Positions 8,857 through 21,520 of a stretch of DNA of 64,000 nucleotides are shown here, in pieces (the first letter of the stretch is position 1; each line of letters opens with the position of its first letter). The DNA lies in contig JACRKZ010000021.1 in NCBI GenBank assembly GCA_016235455.1, positions 1 to 64,000 of the forward strand, in the 5' to 3' direction. Position numbers and translations under genes: made by a program. The stretch comes from Armatimonadota bacterium (GTDB lineage Bacteria; Armatimonadota; UBA10988). A model generated the notes under the pieces. That model was not told the DNA's origin. It worked only from the letters and a program-made list of their open reading frames with translations, and did no database searches.

Positions 8857-11211
8857 CTAGTCCTGCAGTTGGCCGTTGCCTTCACCGAGTTGGTCGCGCT
8901 GTTGCTGCGACTTGAGCAGGTAGCTGCCGTTCGTGACCACCGCGGCGCCGGCCGACAGGCCGCCCACCACCTCCACTCGGCCGCCGGCCGCGCGGCCCAG
9001 CGTCACGGCCCGCATTTCGTATTGCGTGGGCGTGCGTTGGATGAAGACCACCTTCTTGCCGCCGACCTCCTGCACCGCCTCCGACGGCACGGTCAGCACA
9101 CGGTTGCCGCGGTCGGTGATGAACGCCACGGTGGCGAACATCTCGGGCCGCAACGGCCAACTGGGATTGGGCAGCAGCGCGCGCACATGGGCGGCGCGAG
9201 TCTGCGCGTCCAGCTCGCCGCTGATGCTGACCACCGCGCCAACGAAGGTCTGGCCGGGACACGAGCGCACGGAGATGCGCACCAACTGACCGGTGGCGAC
9301 CCGCGGCAGATCGCGCTCGTAGACGTCGGCCTCGACGTACACCTCGGACAGGTCGACCACGGTCATCAGGTCTTTCTCGGGGCTGACCGCCTCGCCCACA
9401 CTGGCCGCCACCGTCGTCACCAGCCCGGCAATGGGCGCGCGCACCGGCACCTGGACCGGGCCGCGCGCACCCGCCGTCGCGCTCGTGGCGCCCAGCAGCG
9501 CCAGCACCTCGGCCGCGTTGTCGCGGGCGATGCGCGACGCGCGCACCTCGCGCTCGGACTCCAGCAACTGCTCGCGACTGCGCACCCGAGTCGTGGCCAA
9601 GCGCTCCTCGCGCTGCGCGGCGGCGCCGGCCACCTGCGCCTTGCGCGCGGACTCGGTGTCCTCGCCCTGCTTGCCGGCGACCACTCGCTCGGCCTGCGCC
9701 ACGCGCAGCCGAGCGGCCTCCAGCACCGTCGTGGCACGCGTCTTGTCGCCGGCCAGCTCCTTCTCGCGGGCCAGAGCGGCCGCCGCGGCGTCCACCGCGG
9801 CCTGGGCGGGCGCCATGCCACCGGCCACCACCTTGACCCGTGACGCCGCCTTGGCCACCCGGGCCTCGGCCGCGGCCAGTTCGCGCCGGGCCTCGTCCAG
9901 CGTGTTGCGCGCCTCCTGCTCGGCGCGGCCGCTGGTCATGCGTTCGGCGCTGATCTTCTGCTGACGGGCCAGCGCCGACTGCGCGTTGGCGGCGGCCGAG
10001 GCGGCCTCGGACCGCTGCGCCTCGCGCTCACGCACCAGGGTGCGGCGCGCTTCGAGATCGTTGAGCGAGACCAGTTCGGCGCGGTACAGATCCTCGCCGC
10101 GCTGGGCTTGGCGCCTGGCCTGCTCCAGCCCAGCCTCAGCCTGGCTGAGCCGCGACCGGGCCTCGGCCACCAGCGTCTCCGCCTGCTCCAGCGGGGCGCG
10201 GTCCATCTCGCCCGTGGCGGCCAGCCGCGAGGTGCGATCCAGCAGCGCCTGGGCGCTGTTGACCTTGCTCTGCGCCACCCGGAGCGCACCCTCGGCCTCG
10301 ATCTGGGCGGCCTCCGCCTCGGCATCGGCCGACCGGGCCTGGGCCAGACCGCGCTCCGCCTCGGCCAGCTTCTGGCGCGCGTCCTCCACCGCCGCGGCGG
10401 TGTAGGAGCCGCTGGCCACCATCCGCTCGGTGCGCGTGAACTCGGCGCGGGCGCTGTCCAGCTCGTTGCGCGCCTGCGCCAGTTCCGAGCCGACCTGCGC
10501 CTGCGCCACGCGGGCCTCGGCCAGGTTGCGGCGGGCTTCCTCCAGCGGCGCCTCGGTGAAAGCACCACTGGCCACCAGCTCGCGCCGTGTGGCCAGGTGA
10601 CGCTCGGCGGCGCTGACCCGCGCCGTCGCGTCGCGGTACGCCGCCGCCGCCTGCGCCGCGTCGACACTGTCGAGCGTGGCCACTACCTGCCCGGCGGACA
10701 CACGGTCGCCCACACGTACATGCACTCCGGTCAACCGGCCCGAGATACGCGCACCCAGATGCGCCTGCCGTGCTTCCACGGGCACGATGCGGCCGGTCGC
10801 CTCCAGGGTGGTAACCATGTCGCGCGGCGACAGCATCTCGGTCTTGATGCCCAGTTGGCGTGCCGCCTCGGCGTCTACCTCGATGAACGGGCTGGCCGGC
10901 GCGGCGGGCGTGGCGGCGCCACGCTCCTCGCTGGCGGCCGCGGTAGTCAATGAGCCGCCGACGACAACCACGGCCGAACCAGCCAACAAGCCACACGCCA
11001 GCCGCCAGGCCCGCGCGCCGCGGCGCCGCGCGGCCACCGCCACGCCCACGGCGCCCGCGCACAGTAGCAGCGCCAGAACGAAGACCCACACCGGTCGGCC
11101 GGTCGGCCGAGCGGCACCGACCTGCGCCAGGGCCACCGCCGGCAGGCCGCACACCGCGCAGGCCAGCAGCCCGGCGGAGCGCCGGGCAGAGGAGGAAGTC
11201 AAATGGTTCAT
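8857..11211 (-). CDS. RND periplasmic adaptor (CzcB-like) with a much extended coiled coil
   Basis: Lipoyl halves (ARISGRL..V.VGDRV / VRAPIAGLV), DLSEVYVEADVYE and LRPEMF; located between tolC-like gene and czcA. Confidence 0.9.
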   Translation of the reverse strand: MNHLTSSSARRSAGLLACAVCGLPAVALAQVGAARPTGRPVWVFVLALLLCAGAVGVAVAARRRGARAWRLACGLLAGSAVVVVGGSLTTAAASEERGAATPAAPASPFIEVDAEAARQLGIKTEMLSPRDMVTTLEATGRIVPVEARQAHLGARISGRLTGVHVRVGDRVSAGQVVATLDSVDAAQAAAAYRDATARVSAAERHLATRRELVASGAFTEAPLEEARRNLAEARVAQAQVGSELAQARNELDSARAEFTRTERMVASGSYTAAAVEDARQKLAEAERGLAQARSADAEAEAAQIEAEGALRVAQSKVNSAQALLDRTSRLAATGEMDRAPLEQAETLVAEARSRLSQAEAGLEQARRQAQRGEDLYRAELVSLNDLEARRTLVREREAQRSEAASAAANAQSALARQQKISAERMTSGRAEQEARNTLDEARRELAAAEARVAKAASRVKVVAGGMAPAQAAVDAAAAALAREKELAGDKTRATTVLEAARLRVAQAERVVAGKQGEDTESARKAQVAGAAAQREERLATTRVRSREQLLESEREVRASRIARDNAAEVLALLGATSATAGARGPVQVPVRAPIAGLVTTVAASVGEAVSPEKDLMTVVDLSEVYVEADVYERDLPRVATGQLVRISVRSCPGQTFVGAVVSISGELDAQTRAAHVRALLPNPSWPLRPEMFATVAFITDRGNRVLTVPSEAVQEVGGKKVVFIQRTPTQYEMRAVTLGRAAGGRVEVVGGLSAGAAVVTNGSYLLKSQQQRDQLGEGNGQLQD

Positions 11212-12542
11212 GGGGCACCTGCTACAGTCGGGCGAAGGGCTTGGGGAACGAGCGTCTGCGCCGGCACGGGCGGACCGAGCCGGCCCGGTTCGGCGTCCGC
11301 CGTCGGCACAGCGGCGGGGAGCACGGGCGGCGTCTCGGGCAGGTCGGCGCCGACGGCGGTGCGTAGCGCCAGCAGCGCCGTGGCCACCGCGGTGTCGAGC
11401 GCCACCGAGGCAACTCGGGCCTCGGCCAGGCGACGCCTGGCATCGAGCACCTCCAGCAGGCTCAACTCGCCTGACTGGTAGCCCTCGCGCGTCAGATCGG
11501 TCAGCCGCTGAGCGCGCGCCACCACACTCGACGCATGGCTGGCGCGACGGCGCAGGGCGGACTCAGCCGTCAGCCACGCGCTGTCTACGGCAAGCGCCAC
11601 TTCGCGCTGCGCGGCCGTCAGAAGCTGTTCGGCCTCGGCGACGCTCGCCTCAGCCGCCCGCACTTGCGCTCCGAGCCGGCCGTAGTCGAGCAGCGGCAGG
11701 TCGATCGCGATGCGCAGGCCGTGCTCCTCATCCTCGCGGAAGCCCTCGACGGCCACGCCTGGCGCGCGACCGGCCTTGGCCAGCGCCACCAGGCCACGCG
11801 CCTCATCGACGCGCAGGCGCGCCGCCTTGACCCGCGGCCGTTGCACGGCCAGCGCCTGGAGCGCCGACCGGTCCAAGGCCGGCCAGGTCGGCTCGGCCGT
11901 CGCCGCCGACAGCGGCTCGGCCAGGTCGCGACCGAGCAGACCGGCCAGCACGCCGCGCGCCAGCACCAGGGCCGCATCGGCGTCGGCCTGCGCCTGCTCG
12001 GTCAGGCCAACTTCCAACTCGGCGCGCAGGACATCCACGCCCGGCCGTTCGCCGACCTCGCGGGCCTTGGCCGCCGCGTCACGCAGCGCGCGGGCCAACT
12101 CGACATCCTGACTGGTCGCGGCCGCCTGGCGCTGCGCCGCCGCCAGGCCGTACCACGCCGCGCTGGCCTGAGCGGTGACCTCGAGCCGCGTCTCCGCCAC
12201 GTCGCAAAGCGCCGCCGCCAGCGCAGCGCGCGCGGCTCGCGCCGCGGGGCGGAGCGTGGCGTCGTACAGCGGCTGGGCCAACACCACCTCGATGTCCAGG
12301 CCGCGCTGGTCGCTGATCAGCGGTGTGGCCAGCAGGCGTGCCGCCGGCAGGACGCCGGCCGCCTCGGCCATGGCGCGGGCGCGGGCCGCGGCCTGTTCGG
12401 CACCGCGCAGCGAGGCGCTGCGGGCCAGCGCCTCGGTCACCACCTGGCCGAGTGGCAACTCGGTCTGAGCCCACGCACCGCTCAGGCAGCAGGCCAGCAG
12501 GGCCAACCACCCGGCGCGCGAGCCGCGGGGATGCAAACACAT
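11208..12542 (-). CDS. TolC/CzcC family outer membrane factor
   Basis: Signal peptide; YQSGELSLLEVLDARR motif; ATGA overlap with the adaptor gene. Confidence 0.9.
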   Translation of the reverse strand: MCLHPRGSRAGWLALLACCLSGAWAQTELPLGQVVTEALARSASLRGAEQAAARARAMAEAAGVLPAARLLATPLISDQRGLDIEVVLAQPLYDATLRPAARAARAALAAALCDVAETRLEVTAQASAAWYGLAAAQRQAAATSQDVELARALRDAAAKAREVGERPGVDVLRAELEVGLTEQAQADADAALVLARGVLAGLLGRDLAEPLSAATAEPTWPALDRSALQALAVQRPRVKAARLRVDEARGLVALAKAGRAPGVAVEGFREDEEHGLRIAIDLPLLDYGRLGAQVRAAEASVAEAEQLLTAAQREVALAVDSAWLTAESALRRRASHASSVVARAQRLTDLTREGYQSGELSLLEVLDARRRLAEARVASVALDTAVATALLALRTAVGADLPETPPVLPAAVPTADAEPGRLGPPVPAQTLVPQALRPTVAGAP

Positions 12543-12654
12543 GGGTGTCTCCAGACGAACAGCGCGCGGGCCAGGCCGGGCGGCGTTCGGAGCAGGGGAG
12601 GATCTCGCCGCGACCCGCGGACGGGCCGTGCGGACGAGAGGTCAGGGCAGGTGA

Positions 12655-13035
12655 TCAGGCCCTGGGCGGCGCGCGATCAGGAACCGCCCGCAGGGCGGAT
12701 CCGCTATCGGTGGGCCAGGTCGGCTCGTGGAGACAGGGGCGCACCCGCTCGACAGGCGGAGCAGGCAGCGGTGATTCGCAGTGGTTGGCCGGCAGGTCAT
12801 GCACGGCCGATTGGCGGGCGACGACCACGCAGGCGTCGAGCACATGATGCGCATCGCAGGGATCGAACGGCTGGGCGTGTTCGCCGGCATGGTTGGCGGC
12901 CATGCCGGACAGCGCCGTCGCGGCGTGGCTGACGCCGGCCTGCGCGTAGCAGTCGGTATGGACAAGCGAGACACAACCCGCGGCCAGCAGAAGGGCCGCG
13001 AGCCAGTCTCGGCCCAGACTGTGCCAGCGTTTCAT
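12655..13035 (-). CDS. His/Cys-rich leader protein ending in RAPP (DUF2946/CzcI-like)
   Basis: N-terminal hydrophobic segment, many His/Cys, C-terminal DRAPPRA; first gene downstream of a sigma70-like promoter. Confidence 0.7.
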   Translation of the reverse strand: MKRWHSLGRDWLAALLLAAGCVSLVHTDCYAQAGVSHAATALSGMAANHAGEHAQPFDPCDAHHVLDACVVVARQSAVHDLPANHCESPLPAPPVERVRPCLHEPTWPTDSGSALRAVPDRAPPRA

Positions 13036-13044
13036 GGTCGCGCC

Positions 13045-13073
13045 ATTCTACGGGTGGGACCCACCTGCGTCAA
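13045..13073 (-). promoter_or_regulatory. sigma70-like promoter with a palindromic operator in the spacer
   Basis: Minus strand TTGACG-N17-TAGAAT, 9 nt before the ATG at 13035; spacer holds GGTGGG-a-CCCACC (13053-13065). Confidence 0.7.
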
Positions 13074-13278
13074 TGCGTTCCGCCAAGGCGCACGGATGCT
13101 ACACGGATCCGTGAGACGAGCTCGCGCCGAACCCAACCCGCCCAGATCCTCCATGGGCCTTGGGCCTGCCGTCCACGGTCCGCCGAGCAGCGCTGGCAGG
13201 CACCGCCGTAGCCGCCCATGCGTACCAACGCCCGACAGCCGTGCTACACTGATCTCATCTCAAGATCGGGGTCGCACC

Positions 13279-15219
13279 ATGGACAACACGACTATTGGAC
13301 CAGCCAGCACCCATGCGCTGGAAGCTTTTGAGGCCCATGCCGAAGTGGCCCGCCTGCTGGGCGATCTGACCGACTTCGGTCTGATACCGGCTGGCACTTA
13401 TGAGATCGAGCCGCCGGCTGGTCCCCCCGTGGTCGCCCGGCCCCTGGTCGACCCGGCCAGCGCGTTCTACGCCGCCGTGCTGTGGTCGCCCATCGAAGGC
13501 GTCTATGTGCAGGTCACCACGCGCTTCGACGACGGCTCGGCACTGACCAGCACCTCGCCCACCAGCGAAGATCTGGCCGAGGTGGGTGAGTTCATCGACG
13601 CGCTGGCGCTGATCACCGTGCACCATGGCGACTCGTCCACCGAACTGGCCGAGTCGGGCTCGACCGCACTCAAGGTCGACCTCGACGGCATCGCCGAGGC
13701 GTTCGGCGAGGACCAGAGCCGACTCATTGAGACCGCGTTCGAGGCCGCGCCGGAAATGGCCGCGTCGGGCTACCTGCAGGAAGCCCTGAGCGAGCAGAGC
13801 GACGAAGACGTCGAGCCGGCCACGCGCCTGACCGCCTACACCGACGCTGACATCGTCCACCGCGAGTTCGTGCAGAGCGTGATCGACTGGCTCGCCGGCC
13901 ACGGCCTCGTGACCGAGGAGATCAGCGGCTACGAGATGGACGAACTCGACGACGATGCCTGGTCGGAGATCATGGCCGACGGCGAAGTGGTCATCGACGG
14001 CAGCGGCCCGGTGCCGTGGCAGGCGGTGGTCGACATCGCCGTACTGGCCGAGGCGCAGGTCGATATGGACTCGGTGGAGGACGAGGTCTCGCCGTTCGAG
14101 GTCAGCCTGGCGCTGGACGACCCCGAGGGCAGTTGGATCACGCCCGATCTGCTGCGGCAGTTGACCCAGGAGTTGGCCGCCCTGTCGCAGGCCATCATCA
14201 CCTACTGCGAGCCGTTCGATTTTGGCGCCAACCTCTACTGCGACGGGCTCGAGGCCGGCGCCTGGCTGCAGATCCACAGCCCGCGCTGCATTGAGCATTT
14301 CGGCGCTGATCGCTTCGTGGAAGCCACGCCCGCGGCGTCGATCACCGACCTGGGCGAGCTGGGCCTGCTGGTGCAGTTGACCCCCGAGCCGGCCTCCACG
14401 GGCGACCTGGAAGACCTGGGCATCGCCTGGGCCGAGCACCTGGGCGAGATCGACCTGCCCGAGTGGGACAACTCGCTGCGGCTGACCGCGGGCGACGTCT
14501 ACACCGAGCCCGACGGCGAACCTTGGGCCGCCGATGACGACGACGACGCGGAGGAACTGGCAGACCGGCGCGGGGTGGAAGGCTTCAACCAGACCTACCA
14601 CGCCATGTTCGTGCTGGCCGACCCGCCGCTGGTGGCCGAGGCGCTGGCGCGCGGCCGCGGCACGGCCACGCGTTCCGAGGTGCTGGGCACCGCCCAGGAC
14701 GTCACCGCCGAGCACCTGCTGGTCTACCGCATCGGTGGCCACGCCTGGACCGGTGTGGTGGACTGTTCCGCCGCCGAGCGGGCGCTGGGTGTGGCCGAGG
14801 CCAAGGCCCTGTCGGCCGAGCTGGCCACGCGCGCCATCCTGCATTTTGTCGACCCCGCCGTAGAGGCCATCGCCTTCGAGCTGTGGGAAGAGGGTGAGCT
14901 GGTCGAGCAGTTCGGTTTCGGGCTGCACGAAGCGGCGCCCGGCCCGTTCGCCGGCACGCACGGCCACGGTCTGGCCGCCGAATGCGGCATCGCCCCCGGC
15001 CAGCCCGGCCTGAGCTTCGCCTCGGCGCTGCGCGATGTCGACCCCGACAGCATCAACGACCCGTATGCGTTCGTCGACCACTGCTTCCGCATCCAGGACT
15101 GCTACGACCCGAGCTGGACGTTCGAGGAACTGCTGTCGCTGGTCACCGGCGACCCGATCGACCCGGCCGACGTGCCCATCGATCCGGCCGATGTGGAGGC
15201 GCTGCTGATCGTCGAGTAG
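13279..15219 (+). CDS. very acidic multidomain hypothetical protein
   Basis: Strong GC3 codon bias; ATG 13279 follows TGcTACACT; D/E-rich. Confidence 0.8.
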   Translation: MDNTTIGPASTHALEAFEAHAEVARLLGDLTDFGLIPAGTYEIEPPAGPPVVARPLVDPASAFYAAVLWSPIEGVYVQVTTRFDDGSALTSTSPTSEDLAEVGEFIDALALITVHHGDSSTELAESGSTALKVDLDGIAEAFGEDQSRLIETAFEAAPEMAASGYLQEALSEQSDEDVEPATRLTAYTDADIVHREFVQSVIDWLAGHGLVTEEISGYEMDELDDDAWSEIMADGEVVIDGSGPVPWQAVVDIAVLAEAQVDMDSVEDEVSPFEVSLALDDPEGSWITPDLLRQLTQELAALSQAIITYCEPFDFGANLYCDGLEAGAWLQIHSPRCIEHFGADRFVEATPAASITDLGELGLLVQLTPEPASTGDLEDLGIAWAEHLGEIDLPEWDNSLRLTAGDVYTEPDGEPWAADDDDDAEELADRRGVEGFNQTYHAMFVLADPPLVAEALARGRGTATRSEVLGTAQDVTAEHLLVYRIGGHAWTGVVDCSAAERALGVAEAKALSAELATRAILHFVDPAVEAIAFELWEEGELVEQFGFGLHEAAPGPFAGTHGHGLAAECGIAPGQPGLSFASALRDVDPDSINDPYAFVDHCFRIQDCYDPSWTFEELLSLVTGDPIDPADVPIDPADVEALLIVE

Positions 15220-17433: not shown

Positions 17434-18105
17434 ATGCGATCCACTTGGAAACTGATCCTGGGCGCGGGCATGCTGGCCGTCGGCGCGGTGCTGGGCCTGA
17501 CCGTCGCCATGGACACCCAAGCCCTACCCAACCCTTGGCTGCGCGAGGCGTACCGCGTGGTCTTCTTCCACATGCCATTTGCCTTCGCGGGCACCGTCTA
17601 CTTCATGGTCGGGGCAGCCCACGCGGGGCGCTACCTGGTCACGCGCAACCTGCGCGCCGACCGCGCGGCGCTGGGCTCGGCCGAGTTGGGGCTCATCCTG
17701 CTGGGACTGGCCACGGTGACCGGCATGATCTTCGCCCGCTGCCAGTGGGGCATGTGGTGGAACTGGGACCCGCGCGAGACCTCGGTGTTCTTCGTGCTGC
17801 TCATCTACGCCGCCTACCTCATGCTGCGCCAGGCGCTGCCGCAGGACGAGGCACTGCGCGCGCGGGTCAGCGCGGCCTACCTGCTGCTGGCCGTGGCGCC
17901 GATGATCTGGCTGGTGGCCATCTTCCCGCGTACCGCGGCCCAGGTCAGCACCAGCCTGCACCCGGTGCGGCCACCGCTTGGGCCCGCGCAGTGGCGCATC
18001 ATCTTCTGGGACTTCGCCGGCCTGCTCATCCTCGGCGCCTGGCTGCGTGACCTGCAGAACAAGGTGACCGAGAAGCAGTTTGCCCTGTGGGAGAGCGGTC
18101 GATGA
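17434..18105 (+). CDS. ccmC: heme exporter/chaperone loader CcmC
   Basis: FFHMP, WGMWWNWDPRET (WWD motif) and SLHP. Confidence 0.9.
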   Translation: MRSTWKLILGAGMLAVGAVLGLTVAMDTQALPNPWLREAYRVVFFHMPFAFAGTVYFMVGAAHAGRYLVTRNLRADRAALGSAELGLILLGLATVTGMIFARCQWGMWWNWDPRETSVFFVLLIYAAYLMLRQALPQDEALRARVSAAYLLLAVAPMIWLVAIFPRTAAQVSTSLHPVRPPLGPAQWRIIFWDFAGLLILGAWLRDLQNKVTEKQFALWESGR

Positions 18106-18260
18106 ACAGCGGAACCTACGTGGCCCTGGGCGCCTGCCTGCTGGGCTGGGCCAGCCTGGGTGTGTATGCGTCCATGCTCATCAGCCGCGCCCGGCAACTG
18201 CCCTCGCCGGAGGAGCACGCGCCGGACGACGCACCGACAGTGACCGTACGCGACGCCTGA
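18102..18260 (+). CDS. ccmD: CcmD-like small membrane protein (absent from the ORF track)
   Basis: 52 aa MNSGTYVALGACLLGWASLGVYASMLISRARQL…; ATGA overlap with ccmC; one TM segment followed by a basic/polar tail; lies between ccmC and ccmE. Confidence 0.75.
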   Translation: MNSGTYVALGACLLGWASLGVYASMLISRARQLPSPEEHAPDDAPTVTVRDA

Positions 18261-18295
18261 GCACTGCCCGCAGTGCAGGCTCCGAGGAGATACCC

Positions 18296-18700
18296 GTGGA
18301 GGGACAGCGCAAGAAGTTCGTGCTCGGCTTGGTGTTCATCGTGCTCCTGGCCTTGGTGGCCATCAAGGGCATGAGTGGCTCCATGGCCGCCTACCAGAAC
18401 AGCTATGAGACCGTGAAGAGTCAGCCGGGCCGCGTCTTCCAGGTGCCCGGCGTGGTGGATAAGTCGGTGGCCGAGCAGGTCGACCGCCAGGCCGGCTCCT
18501 TCCAGTTCACCATGCGCGACGTGGAGACACGGGCGCAGAGCATGGTCGTGCGCTCAAAGCGCATCAAGCCCGGCAACTTCGACACGGCGACCCAGGTGGT
18601 CTGCATCGGGCGCTACAAGGACGGCGTCTTCGAGGCCGACAACATCCTGGTCAAATGCCCCTCCAAGGAGCAGGAGAAGCTCAAGGCCGCCGGCGGCTAG
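18296..18700 (+). CDS. ccmE: CcmE heme chaperone, Cys-type variant
   Basis: GGAG RBS plus GTG; N-terminal TM; KPGNF…VVCIGRY…FEADNILVKCPSK. Confidence 0.85.
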   Translation: MEGQRKKFVLGLVFIVLLALVAIKGMSGSMAAYQNSYETVKSQPGRVFQVPGVVDKSVAEQVDRQAGSFQFTMRDVETRAQSMVVRSKRIKPGNFDTATQVVCIGRYKDGVFEADNILVKCPSKEQEKLKAAGG

Positions 18701-18735
18701 CGCTCCGTGCTGGTCCGCGACCCTAACGAGGCACC

Positions 18736-19383
18736 ATGTCCGAGTCCCGTCTGCCCGTGGCGCTGGAACTGCGAGGCCGCCGCGTCGTGGTCATCGGCGG
18801 CGGTCAGGTGGCGCGGCGCAAGGTGCTGAGCCTGCTCGACGCCGAAGCCGTGGTCACAGTCGTGGCGCCACGACTGTGCGCGGAGCTGGCCGAGCTCGTG
18901 GCCGCCGGTCGCATCGGCCAACACGCGCGCGGCTATGCCGAAGGCGACCTGGCCGACGCTTGGCTGGCCTTTGCGGCCACGGACGACCAGGCCATCAACC
19001 AGGCCGTCGCCGCCGAGGCGGAGGTCCGGCGCATCTGGTGCAACTGCGCCGCGCCACCCGAAGCCGGCAACTGCCACGTACTGGCGGCGGTGCGGCGCGA
19101 GGGCGTCACCGTGGCGCTGGGCACCGACGGCGCCAGCCCGTTCGCCGCGCGCCGCCTGCGCGAACGCGTGGAACAGGTCATCAGCCCCGAGGTGGCCCAA
19201 CTGGTGAGCCTGCTGGGCGAGCTGCGCAGCGAGGTGCAAGCCCGCGTGGCCACGGAATCGGCACGGCGCGCCTGCTATGAGACAATGTGGGACAGCGCGG
19301 CGCTCGACCGGCTGGCGGCCGGAGACCCCGACGGGGCGCGTGCGGTGCTACAGGCCATTCTGGATGAGGCGGCGAACGGGTGA
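18736..19383 (+). CDS. precorrin-2 dehydrogenase/sirohydrochlorin ferrochelatase (SirC / CysG N-terminal)
   Basis: VVIGGGQVARRK, AATDD..N and GTDGASP. Confidence 0.9.
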   Translation: MSESRLPVALELRGRRVVVIGGGQVARRKVLSLLDAEAVVTVVAPRLCAELAELVAAGRIGQHARGYAEGDLADAWLAFAATDDQAINQAVAAEAEVRRIWCNCAAPPEAGNCHVLAAVRREGVTVALGTDGASPFAARRLRERVEQVISPEVAQLVSLLGELRSEVQARVATESARRACYETMWDSAALDRLAAGDPDGARAVLQAILDEAANG

Positions 19384-20693
19384 ACAACGAGCTCCACATC
19401 GTGGCGGCAGGCCTCAACCACCGCACCGCACCCATCGAGGTGCGGGAGCAGGTGGCTTTCGGCAACGGACGCTTGGAGGCCGCGCTGATCCAGATCACCG
19501 ACCAGCCCGCGCTGGGCGAAGCGGTGATCCTGTCGACCTGCAATCGCGCCGAGCTGTACGCGGCCGCGTCCAGCGCGCCAGAGGCACTCGATGCGCTGGC
19601 GCGCTTCCTCAGCGAGTTCCACGGCGTGGAGCAGGCAGCGGTCTCGCCTCACCTGTACCGCTACGAGGACGAGGAGGCGGTGCGGCACCTGTTCACCGTG
19701 GCCGTCGGGCTCGACTCCATGGTGCTGGGTGAAGGGCAGATCCTGGCCCAAGTGAAGCAGGCGCTGCTCTCGGCCAGCGAGGCCGGTTCGGCGCGCACCT
19801 GCCTGCAGGAGCTGTTTCAGCGCGCACTCAGCCTGGGCAAGCGGGCCCGTACCGAAACTGCCATCGCCCGCGGCGCGGTGTCCATCAGTTCCGCCGCGGT
19901 GGACCTGGCCAAGACCACCTTCGGCGACCTCAAGGGCCGCGAGGTGCTGGTCGTGGGCGCGGGCGAGATGAGCCGGCAGACGCTCACCCACCTGGTGGAC
20001 AGCGGCGTCAAGTCGGTCATCGTCGCCAATCGCACCTTCGAGAACGCCGACGAGCTGGCCGGCGAGTTCGGCGGCAGCGCCATCCGTTTCGACGAGTTCC
20101 CCCAGCATCTCGACCGCGCCGACATCATCGTCTCGTCCAGCTCGGCGCCGCACGCCATCATCACCGTGGAGAAGCTGCGACCCCACCTGGCCACGCGGCG
20201 TGGCCGGCCCTTGTTCATCGTCGACATCGCCGTGCCACGCGACGTCGAGCCGGCGGTGGCCGACCTCGAGGATGTCTACCTGTTCGATATCGACGACCTG
20301 CAGACCGTCTGCGACCGCTATCGCGCCGAACGCGCCAAGGAGGCCGAGGCGGTGGCGGTGATGGTCGATGAGGAGACGCGGCGGTTCGAGCACTGGCTGG
20401 GCAGCCGGGCCGTGACGCCGCTCCTGGTCGAACTGCGCACGCGCACCGAAGCGCTGCGCGATACCGAACTTGAGCGCTGGATGCGGCGTCTGCCCAATCT
20501 GGAGCCCGAAGAGCGTGAGTTGGTGGGTCAGATGATGCGCAGCTTCGCCAACAAGCTGCTGCACGGCCCGACCACGCACCTGCGCGCCATGGCGGGCCGA
20601 GAGCAAGGGGCCGAGTGGGTGCCCTTCGTGCGGTCGCTCTTTGAGCTGCACGAGCACATCGACGCTCAGAGCGACGAGGAGGACGTACGATGA
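19380..20693 (+). CDS. hemA: glutamyl-tRNA reductase
   Basis: GLNHRTAP, LSTCNRAE, GLDSMVLGEGQILAQ, GAGEM and DIAVPRD. Confidence 0.97.
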   Translation: MNNELHIVAAGLNHRTAPIEVREQVAFGNGRLEAALIQITDQPALGEAVILSTCNRAELYAAASSAPEALDALARFLSEFHGVEQAAVSPHLYRYEDEEAVRHLFTVAVGLDSMVLGEGQILAQVKQALLSASEAGSARTCLQELFQRALSLGKRARTETAIARGAVSISSAAVDLAKTTFGDLKGREVLVVGAGEMSRQTLTHLVDSGVKSVIVANRTFENADELAGEFGGSAIRFDEFPQHLDRADIIVSSSSAPHAIITVEKLRPHLATRRGRPLFIVDIAVPRDVEPAVADLEDVYLFDIDDLQTVCDRYRAERAKEAEAVAVMVDEETRRFEHWLGSRAVTPLLVELRTRTEALRDTELERWMRRLPNLEPEERELVGQMMRSFANKLLHGPTTHLRAMAGREQGAEWVPFVRSLFELHEHIDAQSDEEDVR

Positions 20694-21520
20694 CCGCGCT
20701 GTGCGTGCTGGCTGAGACGGTGGCGCTGTTGGGCCTGTTGGCCGCGGCGGTCACGTTCCCACTACGGCTGCTGCGGCCGGACCGCGACTACACGCGCTGG
20801 GGGCAGCGCGGCATGTTGCTGGGAGCCGGGTTGCTGGGCATGGGGCTCATGGCGCATTTCGTGCGCCGCGGCGAGGGTCCGCTCGGTGATTGGGCCAACA
20901 TCTCGTTCCTGCTCGTGCTGCTGCTGGCGCTGGCGGTGCTGTGCGTGGAACGGTTCGCCAAACGGCCCGCCCTGGCCGCGTTCATCACGCCGCTCATGTT
21001 CGGCACCGCGTTGCTGGGTCTGTTGCGCGCGGCCAAGGCGCTGCCCGCCATCAGCAACCACTGGCTGGTCGTGCACATCCTGCTGTCACTGGTGGCCTAT
21101 GTCTGCTTCACACTGGCTTTTGCCATGGCCGCCTCGTACCTGATCTCCGACCACCTGCTCAAGCGCAAGCAGCTCGAACGGCTGCCGCTGCTGCCGCCAT
21201 TGGCCTCGGCCGACCGTGTCGGGCATGGCGCGGTGATGGTCGGGCTGGCATTGTTCACCATCGGCCTGCTGGTCGGCGCGCTGACCTTTTGGGACTTCGG
21301 CGTGGGTATGGATCCCAAGATCCCGGCGGCTATGGTGACCTGGCTGATCTACGCTGGCTACCTGGGCCTGCGCCACCTCGCCGGCTGGCGCGGCCGGCGG
21401 CTGCAGTGGGTGCTCGTGGCCGGGTTCGCCATGGTGGTCATCACCTTTGCCTTCTTCGGGCACAATGCCGTGCGGCTCAAGGCGCCCGACGCGGCTCCGG
21501 TGACGACCGAGCGGGCCTAG
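20690..21520 (+). CDS. CcsA/HemX-like cytochrome c assembly membrane protein
   Basis: About 8 TM segments; WLVVHI, DPKI…TWLIY and GWRGRR; adjacent to hemA. Confidence 0.8.
   Translation: MTALCVLAETVALLGLLAAAVTFPLRLLRPDRDYTRWGQRGMLLGAGLLGMGLMAHFVRRGEGPLGDWANISFLLVLLLALAVLCVERFAKRPALAAFITPLMFGTALLGLLRAAKALPAISNHWLVVHILLSLVAYVCFTLAFAMAASYLISDHLLKRKQLERLPLLPPLASADRVGHGAVMVGLALFTIGLLVGALTFWDFGVGMDPKIPAAMVTWLIYAGYLGLRHLAGWRGRRLQWVLVAGFAMVVITFAFFGHNAVRLKAPDAAPVTTERA

Follow-up and report, generated by a model that had tools for sequence, protein, structure and literature searches.

The DNA analyzed in this study comprises 64,000 nucleotides (positions 1 to 64,000, forward strand) of contig JACRKZ010000021.1, genome assembly GCA_016235455.1, from an Armatimonadota bacterium, and is termed the window below. 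On its minus strand lies a small gene for a protein of 126 amino acids (P0001, referred to as the leader), which heads an operon for an outer-membrane efflux protein (OEP), a periplasmic adaptor of the membrane fusion protein (MFP) type, and a heavy-metal pump of the resistance-nodulation-division (RND) superfamily. The leader carries the tetrapeptide RAPP close to its C-terminus, and the original prediction, made from the sequence alone, had regarded it as a candidate metal-sensing ribosome-arrest switch. The features of the locus are summarized in Table 1.

Table 1. Features of the leader-pump locus in the window, in the direction of transcription
Feature	Positions	Strand	Remarks
Sigma-70-type promoter, TTGACG-N17-TAGAAT	13045..13073	-	Both hexamers and the 9-nt distance to the ATG conserved
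Leader gene P0001, 126 amino acids and stop codon	12655..13035	-	dN/dS 0.30-0.34; GC by codon position 0.76/0.57/0.78
Putative N-terminal signal-anchor or signal peptide, residues 5-30	12946..13023	-	Hydrophobic W11-V25 after K2/R3/R9
Candidate metal-ligand region, residues 26-69	12829..12960	-	H26-x-D28-C29, H49, P59-C60-x2-H63(H64), C69
Conserved C-terminal tail, residues 100-126 (PCLHEPTWPTDSGSAL....DRAPPRA)	12658..12738	-	Alignment; tail dN/dS 0.15-0.33
RAPP codons CGC GCG CCG CCC, R121-P124	12664..12675	-	Putative arrest point: Pro123 in the P site, Pro124 in the A site
C-rich spacer, leader stop to OEP start, 112 nt	12543..12654	-	C52/G32; top 1.35% of genome windows
Spacer hairpin 1 (predicted)	12603..12639	-	15 pairs, 5 kept through double changes, window vs. 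L004
Spacer hairpin 2 (predicted)	12549..12592	-	CUCC pairs with the Shine-Dalgarno GGAG (12549-12552); consensus fold of window and L004
Outer-membrane efflux protein, TolC/OEP family, 444 amino acids	11208..12542	-	PF02321, 1.5e-33
Periplasmic adaptor MFP, 784 amino acids, long coiled-coil insert	8857..11211	-	HlyD_D23 1.4e-37; TIGR01730 187 bits
CusA/CzcA-family heavy-metal RND pump, 1064 amino acids	5651..8845	-	TIGR00914 1208 bits vs. cut-off 701

The window has a base composition of 70% G+C, and long spurious open reading frames (ORFs) overlap the leader region. Between positions 12300 and 13400, one sigma-70-like site was found, compared to 0.1 expected from shuffled sequences. A gap of 9 nt separates the end of its -10 box from the ATG at 13035, and no Shine-Dalgarno sequence lies in this interval; the leader mRNA should therefore be leaderless or nearly so. 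Hexamers and spacing were kept in 3/3 loci, namely the window and the metagenome loci L003 and L004, where the promoter is likewise followed by a gapless ORF of 126 codons and then by a TolC-like gene. No gap interrupts the 126 codons in any of the three full-length homologues for which DNA was read. The ratio of nonsynonymous to synonymous substitution rates (dN/dS), determined in three pairwise comparisons, was 0.30-0.34 over the whole leader and 0.15-0.33 for its 27 final codons. These values show that the gene is subject to purifying selection and that it is real.

A chance ORF in 70% G+C DNA, its RAPP being a product of composition, was considered as an explanation. In the six-frame translation of the genome, 87 stop-to-stop ORFs of at least 60 amino acids contained RAPP within the last 12 residues, and the spurious ORFs across the leader region point in the same direction. 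An added filter for a hydrophobic N-terminus, however, left only 4 candidates genome-wide, and besides the dN/dS values, the start, promoter, length, and motifs of the leader are conserved. Conservation refutes this explanation, the probability of which is negligible. RAPP is common in raw six-frame translations and strongly avoided in real proteins: among 3016 likely coding frames of this genome (1.69 million residues), it occurred 8 times (observed/expected 0.12), compared to 39-114 occurrences of the other 11 permutations. RGPP was likewise the rarest of its 12 permutations, with 11 occurrences (observed/expected 0.23) compared to 30-78. Bacteria in general are reported to avoid RAPP and RGPP, which has been explained by the ability of both motifs to arrest ribosomes (PMC12992588). 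Because the avoidance in this proteome is strong, a neutral RAPP in the leader is unlikely.

The motif lies at residues 121-124, two residues before the stop codon, and does not form the last four residues, as its earlier designation as C-terminal could be taken to mean. It is invariant in 6/6 members of the family (four close and two distant proteins), with overall identities down to 28-30%. All four close proteins share an invariant LHEPxWPTDxGxAL, followed by DRAPPxA directly before the stop (DRAPPRA in the leader itself). With its 27 residues, the conserved tail could span the exit tunnel of the ribosome. The arrest geometry given in Table 1, with the two prolines in the P and A sites, was adopted from that reported for ApdA/ApdP and CruR (PMC10951233, PMC12992588).

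The conservation of the motif in syntenic position was assessed by searching 41 related genomes with the TolC-like protein. Fourteen of them matched, and an upstream region was available at 12 of the 13 foreign loci. The last 15 residues were scored in all 47 same-strand ORFs that end between -450 and +60 of the TolC start. R[AG]PP was found in four ORFs, each at a different locus (RGPP in L012; RAPP in L014, L015, and L017; thus 4/12 evaluable loci), whereas nine control motifs (AAPP, AGPP, RAPA, RAAP, PPAR, PPGR, RSPP, PAPP, and GAPP) occurred in none of the 47. The four loci are orthologous leader-OEP-MFP-RND operons, with an RND identity of 71-74% in three same-family genomes and of 57%, over a partial gene, in the fourth. 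An R[AG]PP leader was accordingly found in all three same-family genomes that could be evaluated, and also in a single genome further removed; L013, the fourth locus of the same family, is truncated where its contig stops and was left outside this count. Apart from the motif, the leaders of the orthologous operons have diverged to 28-30% identity or beyond recognition. For this reason they had been missed by the profile of the close family. The leader thus diverges far faster than its pump, as regulatory peptides do. RAPP-terminated leaders in the operons of relatives had been suggested as a check of the original prediction, and they were found.

The remaining sequence of the leader comprises the motifs HTDC (residues 26-29), HAGEH (49-53), PCDAHH (59-64), and HC (85-86), all of which had been listed before, behind an export-like N-terminus. 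Visual inspection and a helix predicted by AlphaFold2 were the basis for assigning the signal peptide. The AlphaFold2 model, based on six aligned sequences, has a mean predicted local distance difference test (pLDDT) score of 54, its sole confident element being this helix of residues 5-30 (block pLDDT of 87 for residues 11-20). Past the helix, no folded domain was predicted from this shallow alignment, and the low scores fit a largely unstructured peptide. A reading of LAAGC as a lipoprotein signal was rejected because C21 is not conserved.

In the distant leaders of L014 and L015, the residues H26, D28, C29, H49, P59, C60, H63, C69, P82, P91, and R121-A122-P123-P124 were kept. The candidate ligands, including the cysteines C29, C60, and C69, are invariant in 6/6 family members. 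C60 and C69 are located 61 and 52 residues from the arginine of RAPP in five of the six members, and 60 and 52 residues in the sixth. The stretch between the conserved cysteines and RAPP is hardly conserved in sequence, its length being fixed. This parallels CruR of Bordetella pertussis, in which the spacing between CXXC and RAPP is reported to be conserved in >2000 family members and its alteration to disturb regulation (PMC9426467). In four genuine DUF2946 proteins, the family to which CruR belongs, the CxxC cysteines precede R[AG]PP by 44-51 residues.

The genes downstream correspond to the Czc-type efflux operon that had been proposed behind the tolC-like gene. Judged from its sequence, the pump belongs to the Czc-like branch of the CusA/CzcA heavy-metal RND family. 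It is 45-47% identical to plasmid-borne Czc-like pumps compared to 34% to SilA. Aligned with SilA and a pair of plasmid Czc-like pumps, it shows the DFG..DG..EN of the latter and none of the three methionine positions of SilA. The D-F-G...D-G...E-N pattern in transmembrane helix 4 and the methionine triad of Cus/Sil pumps are taken by us as markers of pump type. Out of five RND matches in the 93%-complete assembly, this pump is the only one of the TIGR00914 type above the cut-off. The MFP contains an insert of ~370 residues between its lipoyl-like and barrel-sandwich parts, a coiled-coil rich in Ala, Glu, and Arg that is ~2x the usual length; it is conserved in the operons of relatives (52-62% identity over residues 107-781).

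A scan of 10 flanking ORFs and of the divergent gene next to the leader revealed no two-component, MerR, or ArsR regulator, in line with the statement that no two-component or MerR regulator is adjacent. This divergent gene (13270-15219, plus strand) encodes an acidic protein of 649 amino acids, for which the best Pfam match, DUF6928, was not significant (E 0.013). It adjoins the leader in L004 as well, and in L003 the end of an HslU-like gene lies upstream instead.

Our favored interpretation, to which we assign a probability of about 60%, is that the leader is a cis-acting, co-translationally exported, metal-sensing arrest peptide of the CutF/CruR kind that controls the OEP-MFP-CzcA operon. 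It is supported by the lack of a conventional regulator in the neighborhood and by the pump being the sole heavy-metal efflux RND system in the assembly. The metal-sensing ribosome-arrest switch originally predicted therefore stands in part: the synteny of R[AG]PP and the fixed distance of the Cys/His residues support a leader, whereas stalling, metal binding, and read-out are assigned by analogy.

The following course of events is proposed. The strong, conserved promoter would give rise to a leaderless mRNA, and the N-terminal signal-anchor would bring the nascent chain to the translocon. At R121-A122-P123, with Pro124-tRNA in the A site, peptide-bond formation would slow down. During this pause the His, Cys, and Asp ligands would be 52-97 residues away from the peptidyl-transferase centre and for this reason outside the tunnel, which holds about 30-40 residues, at or beyond the membrane. 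In the metal-free state, translocation, folding, or disulfide formation would pull on the chain and the arrest would end fast, with termination two codons later; the C-rich, structured spacer would then keep expression of the pump genes low via Rho loading and/or a masked Shine-Dalgarno sequence. Binding of a periplasmic divalent metal would block the force-generating step, the arrest would last, and the operon would be transcribed and translated. The metal sensed is probably of the Zn/Cd/Co type, as the pump is Czc-like and the ligands are His, Cys, and Asp.

The closest functional parallel is CutF, encoded in cutFOG of Rhodobacter capsulatus, which is also a small exported protein with a ligand motif and a C-terminal proline motif and comes first in a detoxification operon. 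Copper binding to its periplasmic motif is reported to prolong stalling at the proline motif, and the stall to open a stem-loop over the ribosome-binding site of the next gene (PMC9973294; bioRxiv 10.1101/2025.02.05.636593). Metal thus leads to more expression in CutF, as we propose for the leader. The original prediction had suggested that the logic may be inverted at an exporter; such an inversion is not new, as CutF already links metal-prolonged stalling to a detoxification gene (PMC9973294). CutF differs in its CxxxC and PPP motifs, its dependence on elongation factor P (EF-P), and its short spacer, in which a stem-loop covers the ribosome-binding site. The leader, in contrast, has HxDC...PCxxHH...C as ligands, an RAPP, and a C-rich spacer of 112 nt, in which masking of the Shine-Dalgarno sequence was not above chance. 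No sequence homology between the two was detected, and a Czc-like pump takes the place of the copper oxidase. RAPP is described as refractory to EF-P (PMC12992588).

CruR (Bp2923) resembles the leader in its conserved distance between ligand and RAPP and in a long G+C-rich intergenic region. Its RAPP stall is reported to keep Rho from terminating transcription in an intergenic region of 162 nt, RAPP being required for downstream expression and copper relieving the stall (PMC9426467); arrest at the Pro-Pro of RAPP was demonstrated in vitro (PMC12992588). In CruR, however, CXXC is located ~45 residues before RAPP, an importer follows, and metal relieves the arrest, whereas the leader has no CXXC, cysteines at 61 and 52 residues, no Pfam match, and an exporter downstream. 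The polarity of CruR might nevertheless apply. Metal would then relieve the arrest and thereby shut the operon down, or the off state would be the arrest as such; in either case the pump would answer a signal other than metal excess. The long C-rich spacer (112 nt compared to 162 nt in cruR-bfrG; PMC9426467) and the position of RAPP near the C-terminus are closer to CruR than to CutF. Shutting off the sole heavy-metal exporter as metal rises would be physiologically senseless, however, and CruR controls an importer; we regard this polarity as very unlikely.

ApdA, ApdP, and SecM, small secretory proteins that control the next gene, resemble the leader in having a RAP(P/G) arrest core close to the C-terminus (PMC10951233). 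They differ in that they monitor Sec/YidC activity, precede genes for protein localization, and have no metal ligands. An arrest leader that binds no metal itself was also considered for the present locus: it would report oxidative folding or export capacity in the periplasm (thiol or envelope stress) via its cysteines, and thiophilic metals only indirectly. Such a function would agree with the three invariant cysteines (C29, C60, and C69), with the current model of CutF, in which disulfide formation is the proposed arrest-ending force (bioRxiv 10.1101/2025.02.05.636593), and with the reported occurrence of RAPP/RGPP leaders before DsbA and thioredoxin genes (PMC12992588). The invariant residues H26, D28, H49, and H63 would be superfluous in a pure disulfide sensor, however, and the regulated genes encode a metal pump, which makes this alternative quite unlikely.

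A further alternative is a trans-acting periplasmic accessory protein, either a pump modulator such as CzcI or a small metallochaperone, in which RAPP would tune only the synthesis or export of the protein itself. CzcI and CzcI2 of Cupriavidus metallidurans are small His/Cys proteins encoded directly upstream of czcC, the position that the leader gene occupies relative to the OEP gene. CzcI is reported to quench CzcCBA activity, and the czcI2 mRNA is leaderless as well (PMC10127602). The conserved His, Cys, and Asp residues would suit such a protein equally. CzcI and CzcI2 differ from the leader in their C-terminus, as both are stated to have no proline motif there (PMC9973294). In a czc-like operon of a Variovorax plasmid, the TolC gene is preceded by a gene for a small His/Cys protein. 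This positional analogue, annotated as hypothetical and not a verified CzcI, was not found to be similar to the leader. The AlphaFold2 model shows no folded domain past the N-terminal helix. Only the ligands, their distance to RAPP, and RAPP itself survived divergence while the pump stayed 71-74% identical, and the avoidance of RAPP throughout the proteome argues against a neutral motif. A CzcI-like function is therefore considered unlikely, and an arrest leader remains the preferred explanation.

How an arrest might be read out was explored in the spacer. The C-rich first part of the 112-nt spacer, noted before on the mRNA strand, was confirmed: the C/G ratio is 1.62, which places the spacer in the top 1.35% of all 112-nt windows of the genome, and the 5' end is the most C-rich. 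In 5/5 spacers examined the ratio was 1.33-1.78, compared to 0.85-0.91 in the pump genes. Rho is encoded in this genome. The OEP start is preceded by a conserved GGAGA-N5-ATG. No intrinsic terminator was found in the spacer, an Rfam search of it gave no family at E<=1, and single-sequence folds were not significant (z -1.0 to -1.6). When the stretch of mRNA covered by a stalled or terminating ribosome was kept from pairing, the predicted accessibility of the Shine-Dalgarno sequence in the window stayed the same. In L014 (positions 1170-1245), GCUCCG between RAPP and the stop codon pairs with CGGAGC in the Shine-Dalgarno region of the TolC-like gene 35 nt downstream. This anti-Shine-Dalgarno sequence would lie beneath a ribosome halted at RAPP.

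Several points weigh against a CutF/CruR-type arrest leader. The functional steps are drawn by analogy, with the sequence features alone being observed, and the metal is assigned solely from the type of pump. The small CzcI protein of Cupriavidus, encoded at the equivalent position, reportedly targets the pump itself (PMC10127602). Homology to the characterized sensors was not detected: Pfam gave no family for P0001 at E<=1, DUF2946 (PF11162) included, and in an hhalign comparison with four DUF2946 proteins, the alignment was confined to the 12-residue RAPP tail, with a probability of 2.3%. CxxC is absent from P0001-P0004, as had been noted for P0001, and is replaced by H-x-D-C and C-x2-H. The family is tiny, with four close and two distant members among about 15 billion proteins. 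Regarding the spacer, the covariation of the hairpins is based on two sequences (window and L004). The Shine-Dalgarno sequence of the window was masked equally or better in 76/150 shuffles, and masking was not above shuffles in four of the five loci, the exception being L014 (0/150). Finally, a stalled ribosome would be about 60-100 nt away from the Shine-Dalgarno sequence, a distance that makes direct melting of the CutF type geometrically difficult here. In favor of Rho, it is the composition of the spacer alone that suggests termination. We lean slightly toward a read-out of the Rho type or a mixed one.

The extent of the family was determined by several searches. A word-index search of about 5.8 billion clusters yielded three close homologues with 56-63% identity, while a full HMMER scan of 1.84 billion representatives returned only the family's own cluster and two long low-complexity proteins. 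A search with a six-sequence profile added P0007 alone. This protein, identical with the ORF of L015, is recorded as hypothetical in a metagenome-assembled genome of a 'Fimbriimonadaceae bacterium', which puts the lineage in or close to the Armatimonadota. A scan of genome contigs yielded no hits. The search against plasmids (tblastn) gave only noise at E>=1.

Membership of Pfam DUF2946 was rejected on account of the lacking profile match, the lacking CxxC, and the different spacing. The leader shares with DUF2946 proteins the location of RAPP a few residues before the C-terminus (121-124 of 126). Ligand and RAPP are ~45 residues apart in that family, compared to 61 and 52 here, the distance itself being conserved. 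The leaders of four relatives matched no Pfam family at E<=1 either, whereas a DUF2946 protein of the same phylum scored 30.7 bits. The DUF2946 profile used with hhalign consisted of four sequences only, as a search with this protein found nothing more. DUF2946 is rare in the phylum (4/201 genomes searched) and was not above the cut-off in this genome. Clusters named 'DUF2946 domain-containing protein' ranked top among the language-model neighbours of the leader (score 0.96, 143/256 features), which can be taken as a lead only.

CutF-like proteins have been delimited by rules: fewer than 150 amino acids, PP in the last 15 residues, a signal peptide, and a same-strand gene within 1000 nt (PMC9973294). 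The leader has 126 amino acids, PP at 123-124, a hydrophobic N-terminus, and a same-strand OEP gene 112 nt downstream. As in RAPP-type arrest peptides, the motif lies close to the C-terminal end of a small protein of secretory or membrane type, in this case upstream of a pump operon. OEP genes of RND systems are reported to be the commonest downstream neighbours of CutF-like proteins, the ligands of which are Cys, His, or both (PMC9973294). Exported metal-sensing arrest leaders, including ones before RND efflux genes, are thus already known, and the leader is not new in kind. What appears new is a very small sequence family with its own ligand set and its own distance between ligands and RAPP, outside of which the searches above found no homologue. 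The phylum of the leader is not named in the accessible parts of the CutF-like literature. In the literature searched, no characterized arrest leader heading a Czc-type pump or RND efflux operon was found, the relevant papers being those on CutF and CruR.

A more far-reaching interpretation, which we offer tentatively and hold to be rather doubtful as a whole, is that the leader represents a lineage-specific family of transmembrane arrest sensors outside DUF2946. Its members would read periplasmic Zn/Cd/Co via His, Cys, and Asp at a fixed 52-61 residues from RAPP and would be the sole regulator of a Czc-type pump, with a Rho read-out on the C-rich spacer. Sensing of the CutF type would thus be combined with a read-out of the CruR type, and a rapidly evolving ligand set would shift the metal specificity from one close relative to the next.

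Among metal-sensing arrest leaders, experiments have dealt with two systems, CutF and CruR, both of which concern copper. The locus described here is a compact test case, consisting of one promoter, the leader, a spacer, and a Czc-type pump with no competing regulator nearby. The variants of its relatives, which keep only the ligands, the distance, and RAPP, could show how ligand chemistry and distance set metal specificity, and whether arrest acts via Rho or via an unmasked ribosome-binding site. We consider the RAPP leader a clean experimental model of moderate interest.

Three more small ORFs, with RGPP, were encountered elsewhere in this genome (G000), on contigs C41 (L031:1056-1394, minus strand), C70 (39200-39538), and C91 (L032:110-436). 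Each has an N-terminal hydrophobic segment, RGPP 5-6 residues before the stop, and cysteines (CLLC in the C41 and C70 ORFs, several Cys in the C91 ORF), and each is located 54-56 nt upstream of a prepilin-type gene. The gene downstream of the C41 ORF matches Pfam DUF1559 and N_methyl, and those of C70 and C91 share the same N-terminal sequence. Prepilin-type genes are not among the downstream classes named in the accessible parts of the literature on such leaders.

Small genes annotated as hypothetical also precede the OEP gene of Czc-like operons in L027:1961-2272 (Nitrobacter hamburgensis plasmid 2), L026:1621-1980 (Variovorax plasmid), and L028:2109-2414 (Ralstonia megaplasmid). One of their products has CYVC and, near its end, PPP, is encoded before ihpA, and matches DUF2946 weakly (E 0.11); another is rich in His/Cys and has no PP, and the third is made up of RDPYTDG-like repeats. 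Elsewhere in the window, a run of haem and cytochrome c genes (18080-21520, plus strand) encodes a CcmE-domain protein, a sirohaem-synthase-like protein, glutamyl-tRNA reductase, and a cytochrome c assembly protein.

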